From Gammaproteobacteria bacterium (lineage in GTDB: Bacteria; Pseudomonadota; Gammaproteobacteria; UBA4575), in the NCBI GenBank assembly GCA_041576975.1, contig JBFGJY010000003.1, positions 997 through 64,996 on the forward strand: a stretch of DNA of 64,000 nucleotides, read 5' to 3'. Below are positions 11,536 to 57,143 of this stretch, in pieces. A program made the translations under genes and the position numbers. The stretch's first letter is position 1. Every line of letters starts with the position of its first letter. The notes under the pieces are model-generated. The model did no database searches. It had not been told where the DNA came from and saw nothing but the letters and a program-made list of their open reading frames with translations.

Positions 11536-12354
11536 TTAATTGTTTTTAAAAGTTTTTCTAAATGGTTGCAACAACAAGCGGTCTAACCAAAGATCACGTT
11601 TAGTTCTAAAATATTCAATGCCTATCGTCATATCTAGATGGCCAGCTTGTGGTTGAACACGATAGGTTTTAAACAGGTAATCCCACCAAGGGAGATTAAA
11701 ACCAAAATTACTACTGGTCTCAGCAGGAATTGCAGAGTGATGTACGCGATGCATATCTGGGGTTACTAAGAAATAACGCAACACCTGATCAACTCTTTTG
11801 GGAATATAAATATTTGAGTGATTGAACAAAGAAGTTGCGTTCAATAAAATTTCAAAAATAATGACTGCGGCAATAGGTGTGCCCAGCATGAGCACAACAG
11901 CTATCTTTATAATTGTTGACAATATTATTTCAATTGGGTGAAACCGAGCCCCTGTCGTAACGTCAAAATCAAGGTCTGCATGGTGTATGCGATGTATTCG
12001 CCATAAATAGTTAACATGATGAAAAACTAGGTGTTGAAGATACAAAGCAAGATCCATCACTACTACAGCGATGGTAATTAACTGCCACATTGGCAAATTT
12101 ACATGGTTTAGGATCCCTAAATTTTGTTGTTGCGCTATTGCTGCCATGGCTACCGCTGCGAATGGAATAGCTAACCTTGTAATTAAAGTGTTTAACAAAG
12201 TGATACTAAGGTTATTTACCCACCGAACACTCTTCGAATATTGCGGGACTCGACGAGGCGCGGCCAGCTCCCATACTGCGAAAACTGCAAATACAAAGAT
12301 AAAGCTAGCTAGACGAACTAGCGCTTCTTGCTCATATAGTAAATCAAACTGCAT
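11536..12354 (-). CDS. fatty-acid hydroxylase / sterol-desaturase-family membrane protein
   Basis: Histidine-box motifs HHVNYLWRIHRIHH and HRVHHS, with multiple TM segments. Confidence 0.75.
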   Translation of the reverse strand: MQFDLLYEQEALVRLASFIFVFAVFAVWELAAPRRVPQYSKSVRWVNNLSITLLNTLITRLAIPFAAVAMAAIAQQQNLGILNHVNLPMWQLITIAVVVMDLALYLQHLVFHHVNYLWRIHRIHHADLDFDVTTGARFHPIEIILSTIIKIAVVLMLGTPIAAVIIFEILLNATSLFNHSNIYIPKRVDQVLRYFLVTPDMHRVHHSAIPAETSSNFGFNLPWWDYLFKTYRVQPQAGHLDMTIGIEYFRTKRDLWLDRLLLQPFRKTFKNN

Positions 12355-12946
12355 TAAACCCTTCTAGTAACAACTGGTGGTGTTGTCAATAAGAAACCTA
12401 TAAAAATAAGATTTTAAATATAAAAATTGGAATGATATTGAAAATCAAAGCTGTTAATTTTGGATATCACACACAATAGATTGGTAATTTGATAAACCAA
12501 TAAACGTAGATCGTAGGTGAAGCTTGGAAGGCACTTGCAGCACAAGAAATCTTTAAAGGGTGCCGTCCTTGGCGTGGGGACTTCCTTATACTTAATATGA
12601 CATGCTTTGCATGAATAAGTTCTACTATAAGACTTATACATGTAGACCGACTTCACATTTTTGAATCCTTATTTAACGGCCTGTCTGAGGCAGAAATTTG
12701 AATTAATTGTGCAATGTTATAGTTGCTATTTGTTATTGAAAACAAGTGCAACATGGTGAAGAGATTACGAAAATTAAGGTTATATTAAGCTTATAATTTG
12801 CACAGGAACTAAGTAAAACTAACTTATGTCATAGAGTTACAACATGATTTTCACTCGCTATCTCTATTGCAGTATAGTGTTGTCAAAAGTATCCTAATAC
12901 ATCTTTGGGGATTAGATGCCAAACTAGTAATTAATATAGAAATGCA

Positions 12947-13759
12947 ATGTATCAGCTACTTTTAATCTTGTTAATTTGTGCACTAATTAGTGCGTGCAGC
13001 AGTTCCTCATCTGGAGGGATGCCTAAAATTCCTAGTACTGAATCTAGCTCATCATCCTCTAGCGAATCGGAAAGTTCATCTGAATCATCAAACGAGCAAA
13101 CTCAAGCCAGCCAAGAAAGTGAGTCCTCTGAATCATCAAGCGAGCAAACTCAAGCCAGCCAAGAAAGTGAGTCCTCGGCACAAGAAAAGGATTCCTTGAG
13201 TAAAGAGCAGCAAGGGGGCGCGCCTGCGAACGCTCAAACTGAGGAAGAAATGGTAGCGGTATTAGATAAAAAGCTCGAGGAAGAACTACAAAAATATGAT
13301 GAACAACTGCATGGTGAACTTGAAAAGGCTGAAGCCGAAAAACAAGCTCAAGCGGCACAGCGTGAGGCGATGCAGCAACAAGGTGATTTAGATTCAGAAG
13401 AAGATGCAGAGGAAGGCGACCTTGAAGGAGGGCAAGAATCAGCGGGAGAACAGGAACCAGCGGGAGAAGATGAACAACTAGCTAAAGCGGACGCACAACA
13501 AACTCAATCAAGTGCTGGTGCACAAAATGAAGAGGGTGATAATAAATCGAGTTCCGGCAATCAGCGTAAAGGCTCTCGCGGTGCTGCGCCAGACGATATC
13601 CCCAGTGGTGATGATGACGATGTAGTTGCAAGACAGCTTCGGGAAGCCGCCGAAAAAGAACAAGACCCTGAACTTCGTAAAAAGCTTTGGGAAGAATATC
13701 GAAAATATAAAAAACAACAAGCAAGTGCTGAAACTACAAACCCAAGTATACAACAATGA
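12947..13759 (+). CDS. acidic low-complexity (S/E/Q-rich) lipoprotein
   Basis: The lipobox is LISAC↓SSS, with ~60% S/E/Q/A/D, an internal tandem repeat and a coiled-coil-like EELQKYDEQLHGELEKAEAEKQ. Its stop overlaps the start of the next gene (ATGA). Confidence 0.65.
   Translation: MYQLLLILLICALISACSSSSSGGMPKIPSTESSSSSSSESESSSESSNEQTQASQESESSESSSEQTQASQESESSAQEKDSLSKEQQGGAPANAQTEEEMVAVLDKKLEEELQKYDEQLHGELEKAEAEKQAQAAQREAMQQQGDLDSEEDAEEGDLEGGQESAGEQEPAGEDEQLAKADAQQTQSSAGAQNEEGDNKSSSGNQRKGSRGAAPDDIPSGDDDDVVARQLREAAEKEQDPELRKKLWEEYRKYKKQQASAETTNPSIQQ
13079..13174 (+). repeat. 48-bp perfect-frame tandem duplication (2 copies, 1 mismatch) inside the acidic lipoprotein gene
   Basis: tctgaatcatcaa(a/g)cgagcaaactcaagccagccaagaaagtgagtcc occurs twice and encodes SESS(N/S)EQTQASQESES. 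Confidence 0.85.
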
Positions 13760-14943
13760 ATATCTATAAGAACTATTTTCCCTATTTATTAATTATTATC
13801 TTGATCATCAGCTTTCAGTTTATTGGATGCGCAACTACTACAGTTAAAGTAAATGATGAAGAGGAAATAGAATCCGAAACTACACAGCTTCAAGATAGCA
13901 AGTTATTGGATGTTGGGATTTTAATATTTGAGAAAGGTGAAGTCACCGAGAAACAACAAGAAAAAGAGGGCGTGCATGAAGATATTCGTAAAGCCGAATC
14001 ACGCTATATAGCCTTCCATCTAAAAGAAACCATGCAGCGCGCAAATGGCTGGGGCGCAATTCGCGTGTTGCCTACAAAATCACATATTGCTGACGTCATC
14101 GTGCAAGGCACTATCATTACTTCGAATGGAGAGAAATTGGTTTTGCAAATCCAGGTTGATGATAGTACTGGTCAATTATGGTTCGAAAAAACCTATAAAG
14201 CCTCTGCAGATGAAGAATCGTATAGATCTGTCAGACCAGGAAGAGAGGTTTACCAATATGTCTACAATCGAATTGCAAACGACATTTATAGGCATCGCAA
14301 AAAGTTAACCGATAAAGAAAGCATTACGATTCGCAATACCTCAGAACTACGCTATGCATCAGATATCTCGCCGGACCCATTTTCAAATTACATTACATCT
14401 GATCCGAATGGCCAAAGTACTATTACGCGATTACCTGCTGATGATGACCCAATGCTGGGACGCGTGCGGAAAGTCAGAGAACGTGAATTCTTATTCATCG
14501 ATACTATTAATGAGCACTACTCTAATTTTTACGATCAAATGTGGGATCCATATGAAAATTGGCGTAAATATTACTTAATTGAAGCTGAGCAAAGACGTAC
14601 GGTGGAACGTCGTGCAAATCAAACTAAATTTGTTGCGGCTTTGATAATGGTTGCCGGATTATTTAGAGGTCCTGGCTTATTTACCACGGGCGCGCTTTTA
14701 TTTAAATCTGGCATGGATATTAGCGATGAAGCAGAAATTCATAATGAAGCCATTCGCGAGCTTGGAGATTCACTGCAAGCCGAGGTTAGTCCTATGGTTG
14801 TTGAAATTCAAGGTCGTACGGTTGAACTTACAGGGTCCATCGAAGAGCAGTACCAAAAATGGCGCGAGCTATTACGTGAAATTTATTTGAATGAGACAGG
14901 CTTCGCCTTCGAAGATAGCACAATAGACAACGCCCAGCTTTAA
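13756..14943 (+). CDS. hypothetical lipoprotein (395 aa)
   Basis: Signal peptide plus lipobox …SFQFIGC↓ATTT. Translationally coupled to the upstream gene. No family recognised. Confidence 0.6.
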   Translation: MNIYKNYFPYLLIIILIISFQFIGCATTTVKVNDEEEIESETTQLQDSKLLDVGILIFEKGEVTEKQQEKEGVHEDIRKAESRYIAFHLKETMQRANGWGAIRVLPTKSHIADVIVQGTIITSNGEKLVLQIQVDDSTGQLWFEKTYKASADEESYRSVRPGREVYQYVYNRIANDIYRHRKKLTDKESITIRNTSELRYASDISPDPFSNYITSDPNGQSTITRLPADDDPMLGRVRKVREREFLFIDTINEHYSNFYDQMWDPYENWRKYYLIEAEQRRTVERRANQTKFVAALIMVAGLFRGPGLFTTGALLFKSGMDISDEAEIHNEAIRELGDSLQAEVSPMVVEIQGRTVELTGSIEEQYQKWRELLREIYLNETGFAFEDSTIDNAQL

Positions 14944-15028
14944 ATAGCCAAGCAATTCGCATGCACATAGTATGCAAGCACTATTGCACCAAATTTAATT
15001 AATAACATAGCTTAGTTTTTTTCATGCT

Positions 15029-16570
15029 ATGCATAAAAATGATTCTACTCCAATTAAAGCGATCGATTTTAAATCGCTGCAAGAAAAAACTGGTATTGAT
15101 TCTGAATTCGAACAAACATTAGTAACGAAAAAATTAATAGTTTGGCTTGTTTTTTTATTTATTTTTGCAAGCGGCATTGGTGTATTTTTATTTCTACCAA
15201 ACTACGTTGCAGAAAAACAGGCGCCTCCACCAATTTCTACCGAAATTCAAAGTCAGCCACCTCAGCCAGTTAAGATTCCTGAGCCAGTTAAAATTCCTGA
15301 ACCAGCTGTACAAGAAACACCAAACATATCTGCAGAGGAACTTAATGCACTTAAATTGCAAGCTGAAAATTTGCTACTGCAAGTAATAAAAAAACAAGAG
15401 GCACTAGAATCACAAGGTGTTAAAAAATGGGCGAATGACGAATTTTTACAAGCTGTATCCTTAGGGGCTACAGGTGATGAGCATTTTCGCAAACAGCATT
15501 TTAATGAGGCTATTAATGCCTACGAGCAAGCTATCGATGCATTACAGCATTTAGAAGAACTAATTGCTCCCACGCTTGCTAAACACTTACAACAAGGAGA
15601 GCTTGCCTTGACTCAAGGCGAGAGCGATGCAGCTGTTTATAACTTCGAACTTGCTAAAGAGATCGATGCACATAACATACAAGCACAAAATGGCTTAAAA
15701 CGTGCTGAAACCATTGAAGAATTATTTACATTACTGGAAAAAGGCGGCAACTTAGAAGCTGCAAACCGTCTTGCTGATGCTAAACAATCCTATCAGCAAG
15801 CAATTAGTTTAGATCCACTATCAAGCGAAGCCAAAGCTGCAATGAACAGGGTTATAGCTCGTTTAAAAAAAATTGAACTTTCACGCTTATTAGCGCGTGG
15901 CTATTCTTCATTAGAAGCAAGACAATATGGAGATGCACGCAGTGCGTTTATATCAGCTCAAAAATTAGCGCCAAGTTCTAAAAAACCAAAACAGGGTTTA
16001 ATTAAAGTAGAACAAGCAGTACGCAATGAGAAAATCTCTTCTTTAACTGTTGAGGCTAATCATTTTGAAAGCAACGAAGAATGGGCATATGCTGTACAAA
16101 GCTACCAACAAATACTTGCATTATCACCCAATGCAACATTTGCTATTGATGGCATCACGCGTAGTCAACAACGAGCATCACTACTCTCAAGGCTTGATAA
16201 TTATTTAGACAATAAAGAGCGTTTAACCTCTTCTGCAGTTTCAACAGAAGTACGTGATTTATTACAAGAAATTGCACAGCTAGAAAACCCAGGGACTAAA
16301 ATTGACCAACGAGCAAATGCATTAGAAAAGTTATTGCAACTCACGAATCAGCCGATATCCATAAATCTGCAATCCGACAATCAAACTGAAGTGGTCATCT
16401 ATAAAGTTGGTAAATTTGGTCGCTTTGAAAATCAGAAAATAGAACTCAAACCAGGTAAATACACGATTGTGGGCTCACGACCAGGTTATCGTGATGTTAG
16501 AAAAATTCTCACGATTTCTGCAAATATGACAACTAAAAACATTATGGTTCGTTGTGAGGAACCAATATAA
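15029..16570 (+). CDS. membrane-anchored TPR-like repeat protein with PEPVKIPEPVKIPEP linker and a PEGA-like C-terminus
   Basis: N-terminal TM (LIVWLVFLFIFASGIGVFLFL), a Pro-rich tandem hexapeptide, alpha-helical repeat content, and a C-terminal KPGKYTIVGSRPGYRDVRKIL resembling a PEGA domain. Confidence 0.6.
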   Translation: MHKNDSTPIKAIDFKSLQEKTGIDSEFEQTLVTKKLIVWLVFLFIFASGIGVFLFLPNYVAEKQAPPPISTEIQSQPPQPVKIPEPVKIPEPAVQETPNISAEELNALKLQAENLLLQVIKKQEALESQGVKKWANDEFLQAVSLGATGDEHFRKQHFNEAINAYEQAIDALQHLEELIAPTLAKHLQQGELALTQGESDAAVYNFELAKEIDAHNIQAQNGLKRAETIEELFTLLEKGGNLEAANRLADAKQSYQQAISLDPLSSEAKAAMNRVIARLKKIELSRLLARGYSSLEARQYGDARSAFISAQKLAPSSKKPKQGLIKVEQAVRNEKISSLTVEANHFESNEEWAYAVQSYQQILALSPNATFAIDGITRSQQRASLLSRLDNYLDNKERLTSSAVSTEVRDLLQEIAQLENPGTKIDQRANALEKLLQLTNQPISINLQSDNQTEVVIYKVGKFGRFENQKIELKPGKYTIVGSRPGYRDVRKILTISANMTTKNIMVRCEEPI

Positions 16571-16617
16571 TTTCCATTAGACCTATTATAAATGACAAGT
16601 AACGCGCGACGTATAAG

Positions 16618-19023
16618 ATGATAAAACAGGTTTGTATCACCGATGCGGGAGGTCCAAGATTTTATACACACGCAGACTTCCCTTTAGCGATTGGCTCTCA
16701 TCCAGGAGCGGACATACACATTACAAGTGACAATCTAGTAACGACTACAGCATTTTTAATTATTATTGTAAACCGCACATATATCGAACTTGAAGATAAA
16801 ACTGCAAAGATAACAATTAATAATGAGCAGGTTGTAGGACAACAAGAGATTCAACACAATGACATATTACAGATTGAAGGCTCAACATTTCATTGCGAAC
16901 ATATCGGCGATACTTTTTCTATCTCTTTATATGATGATCAAGCGCATTTGGTTACAAATAATCATGACACTGCCTCTCATGGCGAATTGATCGAACCCAT
17001 ATCTTTATCAAGTACTGCTACCGCTGCACAAACCAATAAAAAGATTACTCGCCTACTATCAATTTTAGGCTTACTAGTATTCGCCATATTAGCTTTAGTC
17101 ATCGCATATGTTTTTACTGCTAAAACGTTGCTCATAGAGGTTGAACCAACACCTGATGGCATTGCATTGAGCGGAAAAATATGGCCTTTTAAAGTAAAGG
17201 GACGCTATCTAGTGCAGCCAGGGAATTATTTATTAGAAGTAATTAAATCTGGTTACTATCCGATACAGAAAGAAATTAAAGTCTCTAAATTTCAGTCACA
17301 ATCATTATCGTTTACATTGCAAAAAAAGCCGGGCTATCTAAACATATCGAGTGTACCTAAAAACGGTGTTCAAATTTTAATTAACGATAAAGAACATGGC
17401 GTTACGCCCATAGAAAAACTCGAACTAGCTGCTGGCACATACTCGTTACAAGCGTATGCAAAACGTTATCAGCCATACTCAACCCAATTAGTAATTGAAG
17501 GTAAAGAGCAAAGTCAAAATATAAATATTGAATTACTACCAAACTGGGCTGAAGTTTCCATTAATTCTAAACCAGCTGACGCTGAAGTTTGGTTGAATGG
17601 AATTAATAAAGGGGTAACTCCTTTAACTCTAGACTTGCTAGCGGGTAATTACAATGTTGAATTACGTCATACGGACTACCTGCCTTATACAAAAGAATTT
17701 TTAGTTATTGCCAATGAGCCTTTAACCCTTCCTCTAGTAGAATTGTTTAGAAATCCAAGCCATTTAGTTATTACCAGCATGCCTTCAAAGGCAATAGTTT
17801 CTATTGCAGGTATAGAACAAGGGATTACTCCTTTAACTGTGCAACTCAATCCAAATATTGAACATGTACTAACACTTACCAAACCAGGATATAGGGCAAC
17901 CCAACAAACGGTTACATTAAAACCAGGTGAACAACAAACCTTATCAGCAAAGCTTGAAGCCATTCTTGGTACCGTGATGCTGAATGTTGATCCGCAGGAT
18001 TCAGAAGTGTTTATCAACGGAAAATTTGTAGGTAGCGGTACTTTAAAATTATCTCTCCCAAGTAATACTCAAAGATTAGAAATCAGAAAATCTGGTTTTG
18101 AGGTATATGAAAAGATGATTACGCCCATTGCTGATTCTCCGCAGGTTATTAATGTGATACTAAATCGAATCACTAGCGCGACGAATATAGATAAACCTAG
18201 TTTAATACGAACTAGCCAAGGTCAAGAATTAAAATTAATATTTGGTGGAAAATTTTCCATGGGTGCCTCGCGCCGAGAACAAGGCCGGCGTTCTAACGAA
18301 ACACTGCATACTGTTGAATTACAACGACCCTTTTATATCGGTACAACAGAAGTTACAAATGCACAATTCGCAATATTTAGAGCTACCCATAGCTCAGGAA
18401 CATATAAGCGCAATGATTTATCTGGGCCTAATCTACCCGTAGCCAATGTGAATTGGGAAGACGCTGCGCGTTATTGTAATTGGCTTAGCGAAAAAGATGG
18501 CTTAGAAAAGGTGTACCAAGAACAGAATGGCGAACTGAAAGCGGTGCATCCTGTTCCTTCTGGTTATCGTTTACCAACCGAAAGTGAATGGGAATGGGTA
18601 GCACGCATGCAAAGTAACGGCAATACTCAAAGATATGGCTGGGGCAACACCTTTCCCCCTATACAAGTAACGGGCAATTATGCCGATAAGTCCGCATCAG
18701 GTATTCTCGATATCGTAATCGATGGTTATGATGACGGTTTTGCTACTGCTGCACCAATTGGCAGTTATAGAGCTAACTATTTCGGAATTTTTGATCTGGG
18801 TGGGAATGTGGCGGAATGGTGTCACGATTATCACAGTATCTACCCTAGTTTAAGTGATGAGGTCTTCATTGACCCTGTAGGCCCTGCTTCTGGTAGTAAC
18901 CACGTAATTCGTGGTGCATCTTGGAAGCGTGGTGATATCAGTAGCACGCGTCTCAGTTACCGTGACCGAGATGACAAAAAACGCATTGATGTTGGCTTCC
19001 GCATTGCTAAGTACATAGACTAG
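16618..19023 (+). CDS. multidomain membrane protein: degenerate FHA / TM / ~5 PEGA repeats / C-terminal FGE-sulfatase (SUMF1/EgtB-type) domain
   Basis: The N-terminus …LAIGSHPGADIHITSDN…LEDKTAKITINNEQV is FHA-like. A TM helix lies around residues 140-165. PEGA repeats include ISSVPKNGVQILINDKEHGVTPIEKLELAAGTYSLQAYAKRYQPY. C-terminal motifs GNVAEWCHDYH and VIRGASWKRGD are typical of the FGE-sulfatase domain. Confidence 0.75.
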   Translation: MIKQVCITDAGGPRFYTHADFPLAIGSHPGADIHITSDNLVTTTAFLIIIVNRTYIELEDKTAKITINNEQVVGQQEIQHNDILQIEGSTFHCEHIGDTFSISLYDDQAHLVTNNHDTASHGELIEPISLSSTATAAQTNKKITRLLSILGLLVFAILALVIAYVFTAKTLLIEVEPTPDGIALSGKIWPFKVKGRYLVQPGNYLLEVIKSGYYPIQKEIKVSKFQSQSLSFTLQKKPGYLNISSVPKNGVQILINDKEHGVTPIEKLELAAGTYSLQAYAKRYQPYSTQLVIEGKEQSQNINIELLPNWAEVSINSKPADAEVWLNGINKGVTPLTLDLLAGNYNVELRHTDYLPYTKEFLVIANEPLTLPLVELFRNPSHLVITSMPSKAIVSIAGIEQGITPLTVQLNPNIEHVLTLTKPGYRATQQTVTLKPGEQQTLSAKLEAILGTVMLNVDPQDSEVFINGKFVGSGTLKLSLPSNTQRLEIRKSGFEVYEKMITPIADSPQVINVILNRITSATNIDKPSLIRTSQGQELKLIFGGKFSMGASRREQGRRSNETLHTVELQRPFYIGTTEVTNAQFAIFRATHSSGTYKRNDLSGPNLPVANVNWEDAARYCNWLSEKDGLEKVYQEQNGELKAVHPVPSGYRLPTESEWEWVARMQSNGNTQRYGWGNTFPPIQVTGNYADKSASGILDIVIDGYDDGFATAAPIGSYRANYFGIFDLGGNVAEWCHDYHSIYPSLSDEVFIDPVGPASGSNHVIRGASWKRGDISSTRLSYRDRDDKKRIDVGFRIAKYID

Positions 19024-19029
19024 AGAGCT

Positions 19030-19272
19030 ATGAAATATCGAAATTTACTGCTGTGGTTATTATTAGTGGTTACACCAAGTGTTTATCTTACTTTTGTAAA
19101 TGCTGATGAAGACATAGTTGAAGATAAAGAAAAAGCTGAGCAACAAAAAAACACCCCATCCACTCCTAAAGTTAGCTCAGGCAAACGTGGCGAAATTAAA
19201 ACCTTAGAAGAATTTATTCCTAGCGAAGAAGTTTCCGCTGACAAACCAGTCGCTTTTCCTATAGATATTTAG
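19030..19272 (+). CDS. small secreted protein (80 aa) with signal peptide
   Basis: MKYRNLLLWLLLVVTPSVYLTFVNA↓DED…. Tightly packed between the flanking genes, 6 nt away on each side. Confidence 0.5.
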   Translation: MKYRNLLLWLLLVVTPSVYLTFVNADEDIVEDKEKAEQQKNTPSTPKVSSGKRGEIKTLEEFIPSEEVSADKPVAFPIDI

Positions 19273-19278
19273 TTAATA

Positions 19279-20076
19279 ATGAAAAAACATTTCCCCTATG
19301 AATTTATTTATCAAGTATTTACCTTGCTAATCATAATAATAATCGTGCATGCAGCTTATGTTGCGGTAATTCGTCCTAATGCAGAAGCTGAGCTAGAACA
19401 ACAAGCTGTGCAAATTAATATTGACAAAAATTACGTACCAAAACGATCCGTATATGTATTGATTCGTGACTATGAGCAAGAAGCATGCTTCATATTAATG
19501 TTTTGGGCCTTGTTTATTATGACGTATAAAGCTACAAATCTATTTCGTGAACGCAGCTTGTTAGAAAAAGATATTCTACACGCTAAAGAAGGGATAAAAT
19601 TTTTACCAGAAGATGCGCACGAGCTTTCTAGACAAATTCAATCTTTACCTACAGAGGAACATAATTATCTTTTGCCGCGTGCATTACAAGTTGCATTGCA
19701 TCGCTTTAGTTCAACAAGAAACATTCAAGACGTTTCATCTGCAACCAATATTGTTTGTGAATCAGAGTCTGAACGACTTGATTCTGAGTTGTCAATTATT
19801 CGATACATTACATGGGCTATTCCTTCTATTGGTTTCTTGGGAACGGTGCGTGGTATTGGTGATGCATTAGGGCAGGCACACAAAGCTGTAGAGGGGGATA
19901 TTGCAGGTGTAACCGAAAGTCTAGGAGTAGCCTTTAATTCTACATTGATTGCATTATGCATTAGTATTGTCTTGATGTTTATTGTGCATCAGATACAACT
20001 TCTACAAGAAAGATTTATTTTAGATACACAAAATTACTGCAACAACAATTTAATACGCCACTTACAAGTCCCGTAA
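19279..20076 (+). CDS. MotA/TolQ/ExbB-family proton-channel protein
   Basis: Signature region AIPSIGFLGTVRGIGDALGQ…IAGVTESLGVAFNSTLIALCISIVLMF. Compare ExbB/TolQ GLLGTVxGI…IAxGIAEALITTAxGL. Confidence 0.75.
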   Translation: MKKHFPYEFIYQVFTLLIIIIIVHAAYVAVIRPNAEAELEQQAVQINIDKNYVPKRSVYVLIRDYEQEACFILMFWALFIMTYKATNLFRERSLLEKDILHAKEGIKFLPEDAHELSRQIQSLPTEEHNYLLPRALQVALHRFSSTRNIQDVSSATNIVCESESERLDSELSIIRYITWAIPSIGFLGTVRGIGDALGQAHKAVEGDIAGVTESLGVAFNSTLIALCISIVLMFIVHQIQLLQERFILDTQNYCNNNLIRHLQVP

Positions 20077-20079
20077 AGG

Positions 20080-21453
20080 TTGCGCTCCATGGCGACAGTA
20101 GTAATTGATATTTACGACAGTGGTGTACTGATAAGCGATGGAGATCAAGTTCTAGCCAGTAGTGCAAGCTGCGCCTTAATTGAATCCGATAACTCCATAA
20201 TTATTGGAGAACTTGCCGAACAACAGGCACATCTACGCCCTCGTGAAATTTGTACTCAATTTTGGAGCCAACTATCGGCTACTAGCAACACAAAGCATGT
20301 AGTCAGTAACGCCGAACTCGCATTTAAACATCTCCAGTATGTATGGAAACAACTTTCTAAACAGAACTATGAAGTCATTTTGGCTACCCCAAATTTATTG
20401 ACTAAACAAGATTTAGGGCTGTTATTGGGGATATGCGAAAAACTATCGATTCCAGTGCTAGGCTTAGTAAATAAAGCTGTACTCGCACTGCAAGGACCCG
20501 TTACAAAATCCAAATCTAAGATTGTCTATTTAGATGTTTTACAACAACAAATTACAATAACAGAAATTTTGCAAACTGAATCGAGCGTTTCTGCATTACA
20601 GCCTAGTTCCGTTCTGAAACATGGCCTGCAATCTTTAACTAACAATCTTGCAAAGTTTATTGCGGAAAAATTTGTTGCTGAAACACGTTTTGATCCAATG
20701 CATATAGCAGAAGATGAACAACAGTTTTTTGACAAACTAGCTCACTGGCTAAAGACGTTAGAAACATGTGATTCAACTGAATGTATATTAACCTCAAAAT
20801 CAAGTCATTATAGTATTCAGCTAGATAAAAAAATCTTACTAAATATAAACCAAATTGCATTCAATGAAATTACAACAAGATTGAAGGCTTTTTCCACTGA
20901 CCAAGACGCGGTAGTAGTCATATGTTCGCCAACTTGTGCACAAGTATTTGGACTCCTTGATTTTTTAATGACGTTGCCAGGATGCGCGATACATTTATTA
21001 GATCAAAATAGCATTGCGAAACAGGCGATACTTTACAAAGAGCAAATCAATTCAAAAGACAATAAGATACACTACACAACTTCACTAGAGAGGAATCAAG
21101 GTGCACAACCCTTAACCTTGAAATTTCATGCTGGATCTTTATCAAAACTAGATACTATTCCAACTCATTTGTTACTCAATGATCAAGCATTCCCACTCGT
21201 ACAAGAAGTTTTTGTAACTAAAAACGAGAATAGTGAAGGCCTAACTATAAATAGTATCTATAGTGATAATGCGGTTTGCAAAATTTCCACAAATGGTTTG
21301 CTTGTAGAAATTGAAAATTTAAATAACTACACAATCAAATTTAATGGCAAGGCATTATCGACACGGAGTTTAGTTCAAATCGGAGATCGTCTATATATTG
21401 AAGAGAATAATTACGAAATATATTTTATTGAAGTAAATTACCATGAAACGTAG
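20080..21453 (+). CDS. cytoplasmic Hsp70/actin-fold (ASKHA)-like protein with degenerate phosphate-1 motif; possible FHA-like C-terminus
   Basis: N-terminal MATVVIDIYDSGVLISDGDQVL…NSIIIGELAEQQA…RPRE parallels DnaK IIGIDLGTTNSCVAV…TPSIIAY…LVGQPAKRQA…NP, but lacks DLGTTNS. No TM segment. Confidence 0.5.
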   Translation: MRSMATVVIDIYDSGVLISDGDQVLASSASCALIESDNSIIIGELAEQQAHLRPREICTQFWSQLSATSNTKHVVSNAELAFKHLQYVWKQLSKQNYEVILATPNLLTKQDLGLLLGICEKLSIPVLGLVNKAVLALQGPVTKSKSKIVYLDVLQQQITITEILQTESSVSALQPSSVLKHGLQSLTNNLAKFIAEKFVAETRFDPMHIAEDEQQFFDKLAHWLKTLETCDSTECILTSKSSHYSIQLDKKILLNINQIAFNEITTRLKAFSTDQDAVVVICSPTCAQVFGLLDFLMTLPGCAIHLLDQNSIAKQAILYKEQINSKDNKIHYTTSLERNQGAQPLTLKFHAGSLSKLDTIPTHLLLNDQAFPLVQEVFVTKNENSEGLTINSIYSDNAVCKISTNGLLVEIENLNNYTIKFNGKALSTRSLVQIGDRLYIEENNYEIYFIEVNYHET

Positions 21454-22534
21454 AACTGTAAACGCATTTAGTTTAGCTTTTTTAGATGTAATGTTTTGCG
21501 GTTTTGGTGCTGTCATATTGTTTTTCATGATCATCAACGCAAATACGCATGTAAGAAGAGATAAGATTAATTATGAAGTTCAAGGAGAGGTTACAAAGCT
21601 TGATGTAAAAGTAAAGGATGCTAAAAAGTTCTTAGTACAACTTAAAAATTCCGTTCAAGTATTAGATGATGAGTATATAAAAACTCAAGGTCGCTCAAAA
21701 AAAATTATAGAAAATATTCAAATTGATAAAATCCAGTTAGCCCAACAACGTAAAGCAACTTTAGCCAGGTTACAAAATATCAATCAACTAAAAGCTGATT
21801 TGAGATCTCTCGAGGAAGCCAATGAACGCTTGGAAGGTGGTGCGATGGATGCGCAGGCCCAGGGAGATCGATTACGTTATTTTGCTGGACAAGGACAACG
21901 ACAGTATTTAACTGGTTTAAAAATGGGTGGCGAGCGAATTCTGATTTTAGTGGATAGCTCCGCCAGCATGCTTGCAGACAGAATCATCAATGTATTGCGA
22001 TTTCGAAATTTACCGCCTGAAAAAAGAATACTTGCAGCAAAGTGGCAACAAGTTCTTTACACCGTAGACTGGATTACGACACGTATACCACCATCAAGTA
22101 AATTCCAAATCTATACCTTTAACGAAAAGAGCGCACCTGTATATACAGTAGCAGGTATAGAATGGTTAGATGGTGGAAATGTAAAGCAGTTAAATGCTGC
22201 AGTAAGCGGCTTTTACAATACCGTTCCAGGTAAAGGTACCAGTCTTTATAATGCATTTAAAAGTATCGATAAATTATCCCCACCACCAGATAATATTTAT
22301 CTGTTAACAGATGGCTTACCTACACAAGGCGAATCAAAGCCTTTTAGTACAAAAATAACTGCCAAGGCACGTAGAAAACTCTTCAGAAAAGCACTAGAAA
22401 AACTACCAACCGGAATACCGGTTAATATAATTTTATTTCACATGGAAGGAGATCCTGATGCATCAAGTGAATATTGGAAACTAGCACAAAAAACCAATGG
22501 CGCTTTTTTTAGCCCTTCTAAAGATTGGCCTTAA
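21443..22534 (+). CDS. ExbD/TolR/MotB-like TM anchor (conserved Asp) + coiled coil + vWA domain protein, paralogue 1
   Basis: N-terminal KRR…AFSLAFLDVMFCGFGAVILFFMI parallels ExbD/TolR …INVTPFIDVMLVLLIIFMV, with the catalytic Asp in the TM. A heptad-rich region follows. The vWA MIDAS is ILILVDSSASM (DxSxS). Confidence 0.7.
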   Translation: MKRRTVNAFSLAFLDVMFCGFGAVILFFMIINANTHVRRDKINYEVQGEVTKLDVKVKDAKKFLVQLKNSVQVLDDEYIKTQGRSKKIIENIQIDKIQLAQQRKATLARLQNINQLKADLRSLEEANERLEGGAMDAQAQGDRLRYFAGQGQRQYLTGLKMGGERILILVDSSASMLADRIINVLRFRNLPPEKRILAAKWQQVLYTVDWITTRIPPSSKFQIYTFNEKSAPVYTVAGIEWLDGGNVKQLNAAVSGFYNTVPGKGTSLYNAFKSIDKLSPPPDNIYLLTDGLPTQGESKPFSTKITAKARRKLFRKALEKLPTGIPVNIILFHMEGDPDASSEYWKLAQKTNGAFFSPSKDWP

Positions 22535-22537
22535 AAA

Positions 22538-23545
22538 ATGAAAAAACGTAGAGGCATAGAAATTTTCAGCTTGTCTTTTTTAGACTGTGTATGCTGTGGA
22601 TTTGGCGCACTTATTTTACTGTTAGTGCTATCAAAAACTGCTGAGCCGGTAATTTTTGAAGAGTACAGCAAAGATCTAGACAAAATAGTTGCAAAGTTGC
22701 AAGAAGAGTTATTTGAATTACGCGGTGATGCACATATTTTAAATCGCGAACTTGTCAGCAAAAAAGAACAGATTGCTCAAGAAATTGAAAAAATTGCACG
22801 CCTACAGGGCGACTTGTCATCAATCAAAGGACAATTTTCTGCTTCCAAAGATGATGCAACTATACAAAATAAAATCGAGGGCCAATTAGCTAATGCTAAA
22901 CAAGACCTCACGGAAGAGATGCGTCGCTTGCAAGAACAAAAACTTCCTCCGCGCAGCGAGCCCGATGCAACTGTAGGAGGTATTCCTATCGATAGTGAAT
23001 ATATTATTTTTATTATTGATACTTCTGGCAGTATGTTTAATCACGGCTGGGGGTCGGTGCAACAAAAACTCACTGAAGTATTAAATGTATATCCAAAAGT
23101 TAAAGGCATACAGGTCATGAATGACATGGGCGAATATATGTTTTCACAGTATGCTGGACAGTGGATCCCTGATACACCTGCGCGTCGCAAAGCTGTATTG
23201 AAACGCTTACGTAACTGGCAACCATTTAGCAATAGTAGCCCGGTAGAAGGAATTACAGCTGCAATTCGTACATTTTATTCAAAAAATAAAAAAATTAGTC
23301 TGTATGTATTTGGGGATGAATTTACTGGGCCATCAATTGAATCAGTGTTAAATGAAGTAAACCGAATAAATAAAAAAGACAAGCATGGTAATCGTCGCGT
23401 TCGTATTCATGCAGTAGGGTTTCCAATTCAATTCATTCGCCCTGAAAAAGAGCAGATCACAGGAATCCGCTTTGCTACCTTAATGCGCGCCTTGTGTGAA
23501 CAAAATGGTGGCACCTTTGTAGGACTTAATTCTCACACACGTTAA
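22538..23545 (+). CDS. ExbD/TolR/MotB-like TM anchor + coiled coil + vWA domain protein, paralogue 2
   Basis: N-terminal KKRRGIEIFSLSFLDCVCCGFGALILLLVL. Coiled coil. The vWA MIDAS is IIFIIDTSGSM. Confidence 0.7.
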   Translation: MKKRRGIEIFSLSFLDCVCCGFGALILLLVLSKTAEPVIFEEYSKDLDKIVAKLQEELFELRGDAHILNRELVSKKEQIAQEIEKIARLQGDLSSIKGQFSASKDDATIQNKIEGQLANAKQDLTEEMRRLQEQKLPPRSEPDATVGGIPIDSEYIIFIIDTSGSMFNHGWGSVQQKLTEVLNVYPKVKGIQVMNDMGEYMFSQYAGQWIPDTPARRKAVLKRLRNWQPFSNSSPVEGITAAIRTFYSKNKKISLYVFGDEFTGPSIESVLNEVNRINKKDKHGNRRVRIHAVGFPIQFIRPEKEQITGIRFATLMRALCEQNGGTFVGLNSHTR

Positions 23546-23744
23546 CTTACCAAATATAACTTATTCGCTAGCACTGACTAAATAGTTGTCGCATACTGTG
23601 AATAACTATTTGAATTGAAGTAGTTTTCTACAATTTTTTTATCTTTTCATCAAATCCTATTTCAACAGGCTTTAAGTGCATTTTATCGTTAAAAATCTGC
23701 CGCTCATAGCTTCAAAGCGGGCTTACCAATTAAAGGAGTACAAA

Positions 23745-24326
23745 ATGTTATCTGCAAACAATTATCAAATTCTGACATACAGGTTTTTGAAGGGCTTTAT
23801 TAAAAACATCATCTTTATCGTTTTATGTTGTGTGTGGCTTAGCTTGACTGCATGCGGCGGGAAAGAAGATGAACAAGCTGTAAGTTCTGAAGAAGAACTA
23901 GAAGCAAAAAATGAAACACCAGTTGAAAAATCTACCAATAAAGATATTGCAGCAGAGATACAGGCTAACAAGGAAAAATGGTTATCGCATGCGGTCAATG
24001 AATATCAGATCGAAATGCAAAAAATATGCTTCTGTGCACCAGACGTGGTTCGCCTTATGATTTTTGAAATAGCAAATAATGAAATCAAGACGGCACGTTA
24101 CGCAGACACAGGCGATGAAGTAGATCCGAGTCACTACAACCAATACAGCACAATTGAAGGAATATTTTTATTGGTAGAACAGGCGTTAGAAAAAAATCCA
24201 GCAGATATATCCATCGCCTATGACGAGGAATATGGTTACATCAAAGAATTTAGCGTTGATTATCAGGTACATATTGCGGATGACGAAATTACAATAATTG
24301 CTTCAAATATGAAACCAAGCAAGTAG
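23745..24326 (+). CDS. hypothetical lipoprotein
   Basis: An AAGGAG Shine-Dalgarno lies 7 nt upstream of ATG 23745. The ORF track starts earlier, at 23676. Lipobox LSLTAC↓GG. A Cys-containing C-terminal domain (ICFCAPD). Confidence 0.55.
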   Translation: MLSANNYQILTYRFLKGFIKNIIFIVLCCVWLSLTACGGKEDEQAVSSEEELEAKNETPVEKSTNKDIAAEIQANKEKWLSHAVNEYQIEMQKICFCAPDVVRLMIFEIANNEIKTARYADTGDEVDPSHYNQYSTIEGIFLLVEQALEKNPADISIAYDEEYGYIKEFSVDYQVHIADDEITIIASNMKPSK

Positions 24327-24352
24327 ACGAATATTATGGGTTGGACTTTTGT

Positions 24353-26383
24353 ATGTATAAATTAGTTAAATATTTTCTAGTTATTTTAGTTTTATTTATA
24401 TTTACTAGTTCAGCTCAAGCAATTCAAACGTTACCGATTGAAATCAATAGTGAAAGTTTCCAAATTGAATACTGGCCAAGCTATTTTGCAAATGAATTAG
24501 ACATTCAGTTTATGGATGATACTGACACGGATACAAATGATATAAATATCGAATTTTATCGAGGAAAAATAGTTGGTCATCCAGATACTCTAGTGACACT
24601 TTCTAAAGTAGGGGACGATTTAAAAGGATTGGCTTTTTTCTACGGCCAGTATTATAAAATTGCGGGTTCAATGTCGAATCTCAGCGAGCAGCCCTCTGCA
24701 TCTATGGAAATTTCCGAGGTCAATGTCACTGATATGGCCCAACGTATGACTCGCGAAATGTGTCCTATCCATACGCCAGAACATCACGACATGCAAATGA
24801 CAGCGATGGCTACTATGAATATGAACACAAATGGTTCGCCTCCAGTTGCTTTTGCAGTGGGTAACGTCAATCTAGTTGCAGATGTCGCGTTGGCCTTAGA
24901 CCCTCAATATGTTTTGATTCATGGTGGAGAAACTAACGCTGTCGTCAAGGCGTTACAAATATTAGATCAGGCCGATATGTTTTATCGCCAAGCCAAGCCC
25001 GCAAATGGGGCCGGAGGACTAGGCATCGCATTAAATAACATTAGCATCAGGGTTTTCAGTAATGCATTGCCATTTGGTGTTGCTGATATCGAAGACCCCA
25101 ATCCAAGTCTGGCCAATGGCAACCAGCCTGAAATAGATGCATCTGCGTACCTCAATAGAGTTCAAGTTAATAGTAACGCGCTGTTTGGAAATTTAAGAAC
25201 GGTAGGTGCAGTATTTACCGGTTATGACTTAGATAACACAGTGGTAGGTGACGGAGTCGCTGGCTTAGCTTTTCTTTCTACCTCATGTAGCTCATTAGGA
25301 GTGAGTGTTGAAGAAGGATGGGGTAATGATAGTGCATCGGCTGTAATCACTGCGCATGAAATAGCCCATAATTTTGGTTCTTGTCATGATGGATCCCCCA
25401 TTCTTGATGCAGCAAATAATATATGCCCCATTAGCTCAGTTGGTTGCCCGGCAAACGGACCATATATCATGGCACCTTTTGTTAATCCAGCTGCCACGCA
25501 GTTTTCTGAATGTTCAATTGCCAATGTAACCTCTCACATTAATGTTCAAACCTGTTACAAACAACCAATTGATATTCAGATTACTCTACAAAACATCGTG
25601 CCTGCTGCCGCTAATGCATTAACTCAAGGTAACACAAGTGTACGCACATTCAGTATAGGTAACATGACTGATGTTACCTTAATGAACGTAAACATATCAG
25701 GCTCTCTCGAAAACCTTAGTGATCCTAACAATCCAAATACAGAATATACGACGGTTACACTTGAAGGTAATGCCTGCACTATCGCGGCTAGCCGCCAAAC
25801 CTACACATGTACTATTTCATCTATTGATGCTAACAATGCGCAAACACAAGCTATTGTTGAAACGGTCACCGCAACAGGTACTGGACAATTCATGTCAGCT
25901 ACAGAATATAAAAATGTCGCATCTGAACAGAGAGTAGATATTGAACCTCAAAATAGTATCGTAGCGCTTACGCAAACTATAAATGCACCAGTCACGCCTC
26001 CAGCTGCACCAAGTAATGTACAAGCTACATTGCTCAGCAACGGAAATATTCAAGTAAGCTGGACAGATAATAGTAATAATGAACAAGCCTTTATAATTGA
26101 ACGCAGTGAAGATGGTGGCACTACATTTGATGTCATAGCAGCAAATCAAGCTGCTAATTCAACAAGCTATATCGATACCAGCGTCGTCGAAAATACAACA
26201 TACACTTATAAAGTTTCTGCAAGCAATAGTATGGGCGCTGCACTTGCTGCAAATACACCAAGCGTTACTACATCTACTAGTGTTGCTACTTCTTCCGGAG
26301 GTGGTGGCGGCGGAGGTGGTGGTGCTTTCTATCTATTGACAGTTTGCTTGCTGTTAGCTCGAGCTTTAACTAAGTTTAGATAA
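24353..26383 (+). CDS. secreted metzincin (reprolysin/M12B-like) zinc metalloprotease with fibronectin-III domain and GlyGly-CTERM-like sorting tail
   Basis: Signal peptide …TSSAQA↓. Zinc site HEIAHNFGSCHDG (HExxHxxGxxHD). Fn3-like …QVSWTDNSNNEQAFIIERSEDGGTTFDVIAANQAANSTSYIDTSVVENTTYTYKVSA…. C-terminus SSGGGGGGGGGAFYLLTVCLLLARALTKFR*. Confidence 0.7.
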   Translation: MYKLVKYFLVILVLFIFTSSAQAIQTLPIEINSESFQIEYWPSYFANELDIQFMDDTDTDTNDINIEFYRGKIVGHPDTLVTLSKVGDDLKGLAFFYGQYYKIAGSMSNLSEQPSASMEISEVNVTDMAQRMTREMCPIHTPEHHDMQMTAMATMNMNTNGSPPVAFAVGNVNLVADVALALDPQYVLIHGGETNAVVKALQILDQADMFYRQAKPANGAGGLGIALNNISIRVFSNALPFGVADIEDPNPSLANGNQPEIDASAYLNRVQVNSNALFGNLRTVGAVFTGYDLDNTVVGDGVAGLAFLSTSCSSLGVSVEEGWGNDSASAVITAHEIAHNFGSCHDGSPILDAANNICPISSVGCPANGPYIMAPFVNPAATQFSECSIANVTSHINVQTCYKQPIDIQITLQNIVPAAANALTQGNTSVRTFSIGNMTDVTLMNVNISGSLENLSDPNNPNTEYTTVTLEGNACTIAASRQTYTCTISSIDANNAQTQAIVETVTATGTGQFMSATEYKNVASEQRVDIEPQNSIVALTQTINAPVTPPAAPSNVQATLLSNGNIQVSWTDNSNNEQAFIIERSEDGGTTFDVIAANQAANSTSYIDTSVVENTTYTYKVSASNSMGAALAANTPSVTTSTSVATSSGGGGGGGGGAFYLLTVCLLLARALTKFR

Positions 26384-26420
26384 GTCCTGTACATTGCACT
26401 ATCTGAGAGCTGCTTACTTG

Positions 26421-26452
26421 GAATGACCGCTTTCGACCCAAATCTGACATTT
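26421..26452 (-). repeat. REP-like palindromic element, copy 2 (reverse orientation)
   Basis: The reverse complement AATGTCAGATTTGGGTCGAAAGCGGTCATTC matches the 29343 copy. It lies 38 nt after the metzincin gene stop. Confidence 0.65.
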
Positions 26453-26804
26453 TAATTGTGGGCTAAGAATCATCATTTAATCAGTTTTCACTCTAAATTA
26501 TTACTTACCTTTTAATACTTTTTAACTTAATTTTTTCGTTTTTTTATAACACCATATTTATATTTATTTCTTTTTGGCGTTCTGAATCGATTTATTGTGT
26601 TTTAGCGATTCATACCAATTGCAGTCATAATAAAATATATAGCAAGTAAAAGGACTCTAACTACTTTTTACTACCCTATTTCTCCTACATTCCTCAAACC
26701 CAGGTTTTATGCACCTGAGTTTAAATACTTTTTATGCTAACGCTTGGCGTTGCTTAGCCAGTAAGTTGGTGGATTGTTTTATTGTGTGCCATCGTACAAA
26801 ACGA

Positions 26805-27128
26805 TTACTTACATCGAGTACTACTACCCAGTGGTCGCTTAAATGTATAAGCGGCTGGTTCAACCACTAACTTTTTGCCAGCTTCTCCTGCGTTACCACC
26901 AAGTAATGTGAACGGCAAGGATGCTACATATGCAACAGAGCCGATGGCAGTTCCAACTATCCCGAAAGGTCTAATAAAAACTATATCTACTAACATCGAA
27001 TCCGATGAGCGAGAGTATTCCGATTCACAACCGCCTTGCCCGTAAAACGTCCAACGATCTTGTGTGGCTAATAGCGTACTTGGTACACAAAAAGCAGCAC
27101 ATAAGATCAAAGCAAATATCTTGTTCAT
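26805..27128 (-). CDS. small secreted hypothetical protein
   Basis: Start placed at MNKIFALILCAAF…. A GAGGGGGA Shine-Dalgarno lies 9 nt upstream, and a signal peptide is present. No family recognised. Confidence 0.45.
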   Translation of the reverse strand: MNKIFALILCAAFCVPSTLLATQDRWTFYGQGGCESEYSRSSDSMLVDIVFIRPFGIVGTAIGSVAYVASLPFTLLGGNAGEAGKKLVVEPAAYTFKRPLGSSTRCK

Positions 27129-29377: not shown

Positions 29378-29773
29378 CTATTGTCTTTTCTGTATGTAAC
29401 CATGCCCTAGCTCCACGATTTCACGCAGGATGCCATTCTCAAAATGTAAACGTCGCATTAATCGATGTGGCCCAAAGTTATATACCCACTCTTCTACAAT
29501 AATTTCTACCTGTATGCTTCGGTTTATTGCAGCGTAGTTAGCTCTATTATCAAAATGCGGATAATTTAGTTTTGTTAACGAATAGTGTCCGGGATATAGT
29601 ATCCGCCGTTCTCGCAAAATCGTGTAAGTATCAATTGCTACTGGGTCCCCACATCTAACTCGAACTTCTTCTATGTAATCACCTTCGGATACGAGCTTAT
29701 GGCCACAGCGAAGAGCAAGGGCAGGTTCAACGATACCAAGTAATAAAAATAAACCTATGAATGTACGTGTCAT
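29378..29773 (-). CDS. small periplasmic protein, DUF2845-like
   Basis: Signal peptide followed by …LRCGHKLVSEGDYIEEVRVRCGDPV…. The family call is from memory. Confidence 0.5.
   Translation of the reverse strand: MTRTFIGLFLLLGIVEPALALRCGHKLVSEGDYIEEVRVRCGDPVAIDTYTILRERRILYPGHYSLTKLNYPHFDNRANYAAINRSIQVEIIVEEWVYNFGPHRLMRRLHFENGILREIVELGHGYIQKRQ

Positions 29774-53610: not shown

Positions 53611-57143
<3,533 letters not shown>

Follow-up and report, generated by a model that had tools for sequence, protein, structure and literature searches.

The stretch of DNA analyzed here, referred to as the window, comprises 64,000 nt from a gammaproteobacterium of the lineage UBA4575 (contig JBFGJY010000003.1, assembly GCA_041576975.1). 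It contains a set of nine co-directional genes at positions 12947-23545 of the forward strand, separated by intergenic gaps of -11 to +85 nt. The fourth of these genes (16618-19023, +) is a single open reading frame (ORF) with an ATG start. It encodes an 801-amino acid (aa) protein that combines an N-terminal FHA-fold domain, a transmembrane helix, five PEGA domains and a C-terminal FGE-sulfatase domain; we refer to it as the PEGA-FGE protein. A sequence-only reading of the window, made without database searches, had placed this gene at the head of a MotA/vWA operon. The gene context was recognized correctly, in that a gene for a MotA_ExbB channel and two vWA genes lie downstream in the operon; however, the gene is the fourth of nine and not the leader.

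All genes of the set are on the + strand. The first encodes an acidic, Ser/Glu-rich lipoprotein of 270 aa (12947-13759) with a signal peptide and the lipobox ISAC at residue 14. The second encodes a conserved lipoprotein of 395 aa (13756-14943; lipobox FIGC at residue 22), which has no match in Pfam, NCBIfam or among PDB sequences. The third (15029-16570) encodes a protein with a transmembrane segment at residues 36-54, periplasmic TPR repeats (TPR_2, E 1e-10) and a C-terminal PEGA-like domain that scores under the Pfam cut-off (E 0.02). This TPR-PEGA protein is the kinase-less orthologue of proteins that elsewhere consist of a kinase domain (Pkinase), a transmembrane segment and TPR repeats. 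Downstream of the PEGA-FGE protein follow a small secreted protein of 80 aa with an N-terminal hydrophobic signal-like segment (19030-19272), a TolQ/ExbB/MotA-family proton-channel subunit of 265 aa (19279-20076), and a cytoplasmic protein of 457 aa that resembles the Hsp70/DnaK nucleotide-binding domain and ends in an FHA-like beta domain (20080-21453). The set is completed by two vWA proteins of 363 aa (21443-22534) and 335 aa (22538-23545), in each of which motifs and profiles indicate a transpore helix like that of TolR/ExbD, a coiled coil and a vWA domain. Two of the upstream genes carry in-frame tandem repeats. The gene for the acidic lipoprotein has two copies of a 48-nt repeat at 13079-13176, which encodes the repeat SSESSNEQTQASQESE, and the TPR-PEGA gene has 2.6 copies of an 18-nt repeat at 15260-15305, encoding PEPVKI. 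A scan of positions 12300-27000 returned fewer promoter-like sites than shuffled sequence and terminator-like sites within the shuffled range; the scan is therefore uninformative on the operon boundaries.

Architecture and domains of the PEGA-FGE protein

Pfam, structure prediction and hydropathy agree on the layout of the protein, and they bear out the architecture and topology proposed in the sequence-only reading. Pfam detects both PEGA (PF08308, E 1.3e-48, 163.2 bits against a cut-off of 20.8, in five stretches) and FGE-sulfatase (PF03781, E 2.1e-42, residues 540-798). The AlphaFold2 (AF2) model, built on 49 homologues with a mean pLDDT of 78.5, contains a beta domain at residues 1-105 (16618-16932; pLDDT ~86), a disordered linker (107-141), a helix spanning 143-167 (17044-17118), five tandem PEGA-type beta-sandwiches at 169-516 (17122-18165; pLDDT ~90) and an FGE fold at 530-801 (18205-19020). 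All five PEGA repeats can be aligned to each other. The Kyte-Doolittle profile reveals one transmembrane segment, at residues 147-165, and because this segment is preceded by KK..R the N-terminus is placed inside. The PEGA-FGE protein is a single-pass inner-membrane protein with its N-terminus inside the cell, and its five PEGA domains, which form a periplasmic stalk, span an estimated 18-20 nm of periplasm.

An artefactual fusion of two ORFs through a sequencing or assembly error would be a trivial explanation for such an architecture. We found about 70 full-length homologues at 53-96% identity that share the same start, MI[KE]QV, and more distant full-length homologues at 32-38% identity. 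The architecture of about 800 aa is repeated in about 100 independent assemblies (NCBI, ENA, JGI, Logan) and also in at least 20 genome loci. Because length and architecture are the same in homologues from so many independent assemblies, the intact ORF is not a fusion artefact; nothing was found in favor of this explanation, which we regard as having practically no chance of being correct.

The closest solved relatives of the FGE-sulfatase domain are the structures 6muj and 2q17 of the formylglycine-generating enzyme (FGE) from S. coelicolor (E 1.5e-22). The similarity runs over the whole domain and includes a GNVxEW segment common to the PEGA-FGE protein and true FGEs. The segment RGGSYLCHDSYCNRY of 2q17/6muj, which holds the cysteine pair of the enzyme, aligns to RGASWKRGDISSTR in the PEGA-FGE protein, with the cysteines replaced by K and S. 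Both cysteines of this FGE segment are Cu(I) ligands; we take them to be the active-site pair C-x4-C, presumably numbered Cys272 and Cys277 in S. coelicolor. In two alignments of relatives of the PEGA-FGE protein the pair is found in none of 20 and none of 49 sequences. The sequence-only reading had considered the domain a potentially competent copper oxidase that retains the Cys/His-rich motif "CHDYH". This motif is part of the stretch EWCHDYH, which aligns to the structural EWCSDWF segment of the S. coelicolor enzyme, and in the family its Cys varies (T/S/I/V) as does its His (Q/N/Y), leaving D737 as the only invariant residue. As both Cu-ligand cysteines are missing, a Cu-oxidase function has to be rejected, and these alignments rule out that the domain is a copper enzyme that generates formylglycine. 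The other option offered in the same reading, a ligand-binding pseudoenzyme, is the one favored by the loss of the cysteine pair.

The sequence match to 6muj/2q17 and the Foldseek matches to FGE structures (target TM-score 0.55-0.58) are what could be said for an active FGE, or a copper oxidase related to it, that is anchored in the periplasm and matures a sulfatase or another exported substrate. However, in addition to the replaced Cu(I) ligands and the variable CHDYH residues, the ORFs of at least 150 aa in the window contain no sulfatase-like [CS]xPxR signature, and Pfam detects no N-terminal iron domain of the EgtB/OvoA type on the protein. Compared to catalytic FGEs (SUMF1 and the enzymes from S. 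coelicolor and T. curvata), the PEGA-FGE protein has the same fold and clear similarity over the entire domain, but lacks the Cu-binding Cys pair and has no sulfatase substrate nearby. An enzymatic role therefore appears extremely improbable. In Foldseek, PvdO, TvpA and FGE are all recovered with target TM-scores of 0.55-0.65, i.e., the fold is as near to the non-FGE members PvdO and TvpA as it is to FGE. The top NCBIfam match is GldK (TIGR03525; E 2.6e-29, 102.8 bits against an equivalog cut-off of 350). We favor the view that the domain belongs to the C-type-lectin-like FGE-sulfatase superfamily as a binding module without catalytic function; for domains of this superfamily a non-catalytic binding role has been discussed (PMC7159879), and it would represent a clean example of an FGE-sulfatase domain reused in this way. 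We also considered the protein as the variable protein of a diversity-generating retroelement, similar to the C-type-lectin-fold proteins TvpA or Mtd, and rejected this notion. Positions 18300-19023 have no repeat elsewhere in the window that could serve as a template, beyond chance 11-15-mers, and the C-terminus is conserved among orthologues.

The N-terminal domain is recognized as an FHA fold by profile and structure comparison. As a single sequence it gives a sub-threshold Pfam match to Yop-YscD_cpl (E 0.049, residues 23-86). A profile of 23 N-termini of the family matches the FHA domains of Ki-67 (E 1e-4) and EmbR (E 3e-3) in the PDB, as well as those of GarA and other proteins; individually, 10 of the 23 match Pfam FHA (best E 1.6e-5) and nine match Yop-YscD_cpl (best E 6.4e-6). 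Foldseek aligns the model with the FHA domains of Ki-67, Rv0020c, KIF13B and EmbR with probability 1.0 and target TM-scores of 0.66-0.72. In the hidden Markov model (HMM) alignment to Ki-67, Ser27 takes the place of the FHA Arg that follows the Gly, Val41 that of the Ser and Thr44 that of the His. Among the ligand-binding residues Gly-Arg, SxxH and Asn-Gly, only G26 and N68 remain; D82 is also conserved. The residues GR...SxxH are missing from the FHA domain of every orthologue we examined, including those encoded next to a kinase. The domain is thus degenerate with respect to phosphothreonine (pThr) binding, as had been surmised from the single sequence.

The degenerate domain is not decaying. 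In the kinase-less clade to which the window belongs, the mean identity to the window protein is 65% for the FHA domain and 66% for the PEGA stalk, compared to 43% for the linker, and the FHA domain must therefore be under selection; it is constrained without a neighboring kinase and without the pThr-binding residues. Because these residues are missing even beside kinases that appear active, the domain probably is a phospho-independent interaction module, a plausible role that the sequence-only reading had already suggested. A phmmer search with residues 1-168 against 1.84 billion representative sequences returned nine matches at E <=1e-3. The FHA/transmembrane module is rare, and the search provided no additional functional lead. 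In one metagenomic protein (P0204, 1309 aa), nine separate stretches match the core of the FHA domain (residues 30-91); this protein appears to be a tandem array of the same unusual FHA-like domain.

The cluster in related genomes and its kinase-bearing variants

A scan of a genome collection returned 80 loci; gene order was compared in L001-L060, and the per-gene counts given here refer to 61 related loci. The nine-gene order recurs in roughly 50 species. The MotA-like gene and both vWA genes are present in 46 of the 51 loci with enough downstream sequence, and the lipoprotein and TPR-PEGA genes in 48 of the 49 loci with enough upstream sequence. Considered singly, the TolQ/MotA-like channel is present in 54/61 loci, the 395-aa lipoprotein in 51/61 and the 457-aa protein in 47/61. 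Homologues of the acidic lipoprotein occupy the equivalent position in 46/61 loci, and weak homologues of the 80-aa secreted protein do so in 28. The PEGA-FGE part of the protein is found in every cluster, including those that lack the FHA domain or the kinase. Relatives at 55-71% identity, represented by contigs of 1.8-2.7 Mb, have an identical cluster, and the relative at 71% shares the flanking genes too; a relative at 32% identity lacks only the 457-aa gene.

The gene order is shared by many Gammaproteobacteria, and carriers of the cluster include Microbulbifer, Spectribacter, Porticoccus, Halieaceae, SAR92, Woeseiaceae, Steroidobacteraceae and Arenicellales, and also Desulfobacteraceae, a metagenome-assembled genome (MAG) from Rhodospirillaceae and another from Opitutales. 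On a crude tree, the distribution broadly tracks taxonomy. A few loci deviate from the common arrangement. Two Foliamicus loci (L020 and L027) contain the upstream half only, with no motor genes within 10 kb; in L028 an insertion of about 4.3 kb separates the halves; the MotA-like gene is missing from L043, L044 and L056, which keep the 457-aa gene together with both vWA genes; and the Opitutales locus (L059) has its motor half in inverted orientation. One complete copy of this otherwise proteobacterial cluster, including the kinase, is present on a 10.4-kb contig of the Nostoc favosum CHAB5714 assembly (L039); its occurrence in a cyanobacterial assembly could be due to contamination or horizontal transfer. 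Loci of the Pseudomonadales or Cellvibrionales type have extra conserved neighbors, namely two further small lipoproteins, each found in 32 loci, a TPR_12 protein of the periplasm, found in 28, and an M48 peptidase, found in 18; examples are L004 16342-17591, L004 5018-6340 and L006 17984-19411. These four genes have no homologue in the window, and we rejected them as part of the core.

The motor half of the cluster resembles a recently proposed type of proton motor. The MotA-like protein matches Pfam MotA_ExbB (E 3.9e-14), scoring 52.9 bits where 22.9 is the cut-off. Both vWA paralogues open with the invariant helix (S/A)F(L/I)D..xCG(F/L)GA; the motif reads FLDxxxCGFGA in protein 1, with an invariant Asp, and the invariant Asp of protein 2 is D16. 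As far as can be judged from these motifs, the helix resembles the transmembrane helix of ExbD/TolR with its protonatable Asp. No cluster protein matches the ExbD/TolR family in Pfam or NCBIfam. For protein 1, all 49 sequences share the MIDAS motif DxSxS without variation, and for protein 2 all 48 do so in the form DTSGS. Both proteins give a weak vWA match, and a joint profile of the vWA family matches the vWA domain of ITIH4 in the PDB (E 1.3e-4), and single-sequence searches of the PDB gave no matches for the MotA-like protein and vWA protein 2.

A recent study (PMC12204202, Mol Biol Evol 2025) described a "second family" of membrane-tethered vWA proteins in Proteobacteria and Verrucomicrobia, encoded as heterologous pairs in tight linkage with a tolQ homologue and without a tolR/exbD gene. 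These proteins have a transpore helix with a conserved Asp, and the pair was proposed to be the dimeric core of a 5:2 proton motor (PMC12204202). The window agrees with this description in its tolQ-like gene, its Asp-bearing vWA pair, the lack of tolR/exbD, and the phyletic range of the cluster. In contrast to the system analyzed here, the clusters in that paper cover the motor and vWA genes only. Its text mentions no PEGA, FGE, sulfatase, formylglycine, Hsp70 or kinase, and the sole word match to "FHA" is FhaC. That paper therefore gives no description of the PEGA-FGE protein, the other six conserved genes or the kinase-FHA module, and the literature searched contained no paper connecting TolQ/vWA clusters with PEGA or FGE-sulfatase proteins.

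The 457-aa protein, encoded between the channel and the vWA pair, has no Pfam match. Its AF2 model (pLDDT 91.9, pTM 0.86) matches DnaK/Hsp70 in Foldseek with E 2e-18. The nucleotide-binding domain is followed by a small beta domain at residues ~360-452, and some orthologues match the FHA profile of the PEGA-FGE protein (E ~2e-3). The family consensus reads LDxLQQ at the position equated, by motif and not by alignment, with the Gly-rich phosphate-2 loop of DnaK. If this match is right, the protein probably is a scaffold or pseudo-ATPase rather than an ATPase.

PEGA and FGE-sulfatase domains are usually linked to Ser/Thr kinases, and the sequence-only reading had pointed out that this link is missing here. 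For the window this is true: two kinase probes and a kinase HMM, inspected up to E 10, detected no Ser/Thr kinase. As a description of the system it does not hold, because the expected kinase is encoded immediately upstream in 14-15 of the 61 related loci, as a domain of the adjacent gene. In L001, L010, L020, L043 and L056, the orthologue of the TPR-PEGA protein begins with a Pkinase domain (E 1.6e-23 to 3.9e-39), and an HMM built from the kinase-bearing orthologues identified 14 such upstream genes and a fragmented fifteenth. Most of them retain the motifs HRDxKxxN, DFG and VAxK. Steroidobacteraceae and Woeseiaceae are among the groups with kinase-bearing loci. The presence of the kinase is coupled to that of the FHA domain. 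An FHA-bearing PEGA-FGE protein is encoded in 13 of the 15 kinase-bearing loci (12 by HMM, L050 by alignment), and among about 38 loci with FHA-less proteins only L005 has the kinase. The reverse combination, an FHA domain with no kinase, is seen in the window, throughout its clade and in L007, L014, L025, L054 and L084.

In a crude neighbor-joining tree built from the periplasmic region common to the proteins, the majority of the FHA-bearing forms group in one part, and the kinase-less forms are scattered among the kinase-bearing ones. This distribution favors repeated loss of the kinase, and we tentatively prefer loss over gain on the basis of this tree. The window represents the kinase-less form of this system, which in other loci includes the expected neighboring kinase.

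Proposed role of the PEGA-FGE protein in a candidate envelope machine

We consider it fairly probable that the PEGA-FGE protein has a structural or binding role, with no enzymatic activity, as a subunit of a conserved machine that spans the envelope and is probably driven by the proton motive force. In the mechanism that we propose, a TolQ-like pentamer and a heterodimer of the two vWA proteins would form a 5:2 proton motor (as proposed in PMC12204202). The PEGA-FGE protein, the TPR-PEGA protein and the lipoproteins would constitute a fixed scaffold or binding arm that spans the periplasm, with the inactive FGE-like head binding a partner or an envelope polymer near the peptidoglycan or outer membrane without modifying it. 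The FHA domain may dock on the cytoplasmic face of the machine in a phospho-independent manner. In sister lineages it would be paired with the Ser/Thr kinase fused to the product of the upstream gene, and in the lineage of the window it would have remained constrained without the kinase. A more far-reaching version of this proposal, which we advance as a conjecture somewhat more apt to fail than to hold, is that the nine genes specify an envelope machine of several components that has not been described before and is similar in kind to Tol-Pal, Agl-Glt or the core of the type IX secretion system (T9SS). In this machine the TolQ-like pentamer would turn a vWA-tipped heterodimer within a static frame of PEGA-FGE protein, TPR-PEGA protein and lipoproteins, and the kinase/FHA pair would couple it to cytoplasmic control.

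The idea of a machine frame is plausible because of two precedents, PorK/GldK with GldLM and GltG with AglR. PorK/GldK is a periplasmic protein of FGE-sulfatase fold that, like the PEGA-FGE protein, acts beside a 5:2 proton motor (GldLM), and PorK structures are matched by the PEGA-FGE protein both in sequence (E 4e-12) and in Foldseek. However, PorK/GldK resides in the outer membrane as a lipoprotein and builds a ring together with PorN, whereas the PEGA-FGE protein is anchored in the inner membrane by its transmembrane helix, has an FHA domain and a PEGA stalk, and has no lipoprotein signal peptide, its N-terminus being the FHA domain. Pfam and NCBIfam detected no gldL, gldM, gldN or other T9SS genes among its neighbors. 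In the Agl-Glt gliding machine of Myxococcus, the FHA domain of GltG is predicted to dock onto a TolQ-like pentamer of AglR, and this machine also employs TPR proteins, lipoproteins and a vWA adhesin (PMC11761067). GltG and the PEGA-FGE protein share a cytoplasmic FHA domain, one transmembrane helix, a long periplasmic extension and the association with a machine driven by a TolQ-like motor, but the periplasmic part of GltG is disordered and has a TonB-C-like end in place of the PEGA and FGE folds. The resemblance is architectural only.

Similar combinations are known from other envelope systems. The type III secretion proteins YscD/EscD/PrgH likewise have an N-terminal FHA fold devoid of phosphopeptide-binding residues, one transmembrane segment and repeated periplasmic domains; however, the periplasmic domains of the PEGA-FGE protein are PEGA and FGE-like and not ring-building motifs, and it has no secretion-system context. 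By analogy only, the cluster can be mapped on Tol-Pal, with the channel in the place of TolQ, the pair of transpore-helix vWA proteins in that of TolR, the PEGA-FGE protein in that of TolA, the TPR protein in that of CpoB and the lipoproteins in that of Pal.

Several observations weigh against a structural role of this kind. The transmembrane helix has no SHLS/His motif, through which TolA and TonB contact their motors, and this speaks against a TolA-like mode. The resemblance to PorK/GldK exists at the fold level only, as the GldK score falls far short of the cut-off (102.8 bits against 350). The C-terminal half of the FGE domain, with its C-terminal loops, was modelled at low confidence in AF2. 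The FHA domain is missing from most orthologues, mainly in the loci of the Pseudomonadales and Cellvibrionales type, and is therefore not essential to the core mechanism. Finally, the nine-gene cluster encodes no outer-membrane barrel or known secretion component, so that the target of the machine is not indicated.

The main alternative to the structural role is that of a transmembrane sensor, to which we assign a distinctly smaller but real chance. According to this explanation, the FGE-like ectodomain on its PEGA stalk senses a ligand in the periplasm or envelope, and the FHA domain passes the signal on, either to the Hsp70-like/FHA-like protein or to some kinase whose gene lies elsewhere, switching the TolQ-vWA motor on or off; the PEGA-FGE protein would then be a regulator. 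Single-pass receptor Ser/Thr kinases bear the same ectodomains (P0109 has Pkinase and PEGA, P0114 Pkinase and FGE-sulfatase), although the PEGA-FGE protein itself never carries a kinase and in the window its neighbor is kinase-less too. The Pkinase-bearing neighbor gene of the related loci, its co-occurrence with the FHA domain and the catalytic motifs kept in most of these kinases fit a regulatory circuit, and the FHA domain is dispensable in many lineages, as a regulatory add-on would be. Against this, the pThr-binding Arg, Ser and His are missing even where the kinase is present, neither a kinase nor a phosphatase was found in the window, and the presence of the PEGA-FGE part in every cluster suggests a core rather than a regulatory role.

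A defense function is much less probable than either of these. The MotA-like protein gives a weak PADLOC match to ZorA (E 5e-5), and the cluster might thus be a Zorya-like anti-phage system in which the channel senses perturbation of the envelope. However, the ten cluster proteins otherwise yield only coiled-coil noise in PADLOC, with no ZorB, ZorC, ZorD or ZorE, and the cluster lacks a nuclease or effector as well as a MotB-like partner that binds peptidoglycan. Its placement near oriC, in core-genome synteny that is conserved in the relatives at 55-71% identity, and its broadly taxonomic distribution also argue against a defense role. Together with the active FGE and the fusion artefact discussed above, this explanation is effectively excluded.

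Proton-driven 5:2 motors power flagella, TonB-dependent uptake, envelope maintenance by Tol-Pal, gliding and type IX secretion, and each new partner of such a motor reveals how one engine is reused in different envelope tasks. The domains in the cluster are all known individually, as is the motor core, which was predicted only in 2025. What is new is the fixed nine-gene context in which the motor of TolQ and vWA pair is set, the PEGA-FGE protein and the Hsp70-like/FHA-like protein as its constant partners, and the modular pairing of the FHA domain with a kinase domain in the adjacent gene. The candidate static or regulatory partners are the FGE-fold protein on its PEGA stalk, the TPR-PEGA protein that is sometimes fused to a kinase, the Hsp70-like/FHA-like protein and the two lipoproteins. 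Cultured carriers in which deletions could be made include Microbulbifer (M. marinus, M. halophilus) and Spectribacter (S. acetivorans).

Surroundings of the cluster

The window includes an origin region, with yidC at 48356-50041 (-), dnaA at 50948-52288 (+) and gyrB at 54672-57143 (+), all confirmed by NCBIfam, and a minimum of the cumulative GC skew near 48-52 kb. The nine-gene cluster is located about 27 kb from dnaA, and its position in the origin region places it in the core genome. The glmS gene lies at 32152-33981 (-). Candidates for dnaN, recF, the atp operon, parAB, gidAB and mnmE near dnaA were assigned by ORF size only.

Directly 3' of the cluster, at 23676-26383 (+), are two genes, one for a DUF6174 protein and the other for a reprolysin-like zinc metalloprotease of 680 aa (HEIAHNFGSCHD). 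This protease has an Fn3 domain and a C-terminal run of poly-Gly, followed by a hydrophobic and basic tail that resembles a sorting signal. The same pair is adjacent to the cluster in L081, the relative at 71% identity, whereas L082 and L083 do not have this arrangement. Further downstream, a c-di-GMP-I riboswitch aptamer (30197-30284, -; 73.5 bits, E 1.6e-12) is located about 420 nt upstream of a DUF2845 gene (29378-29773, -).

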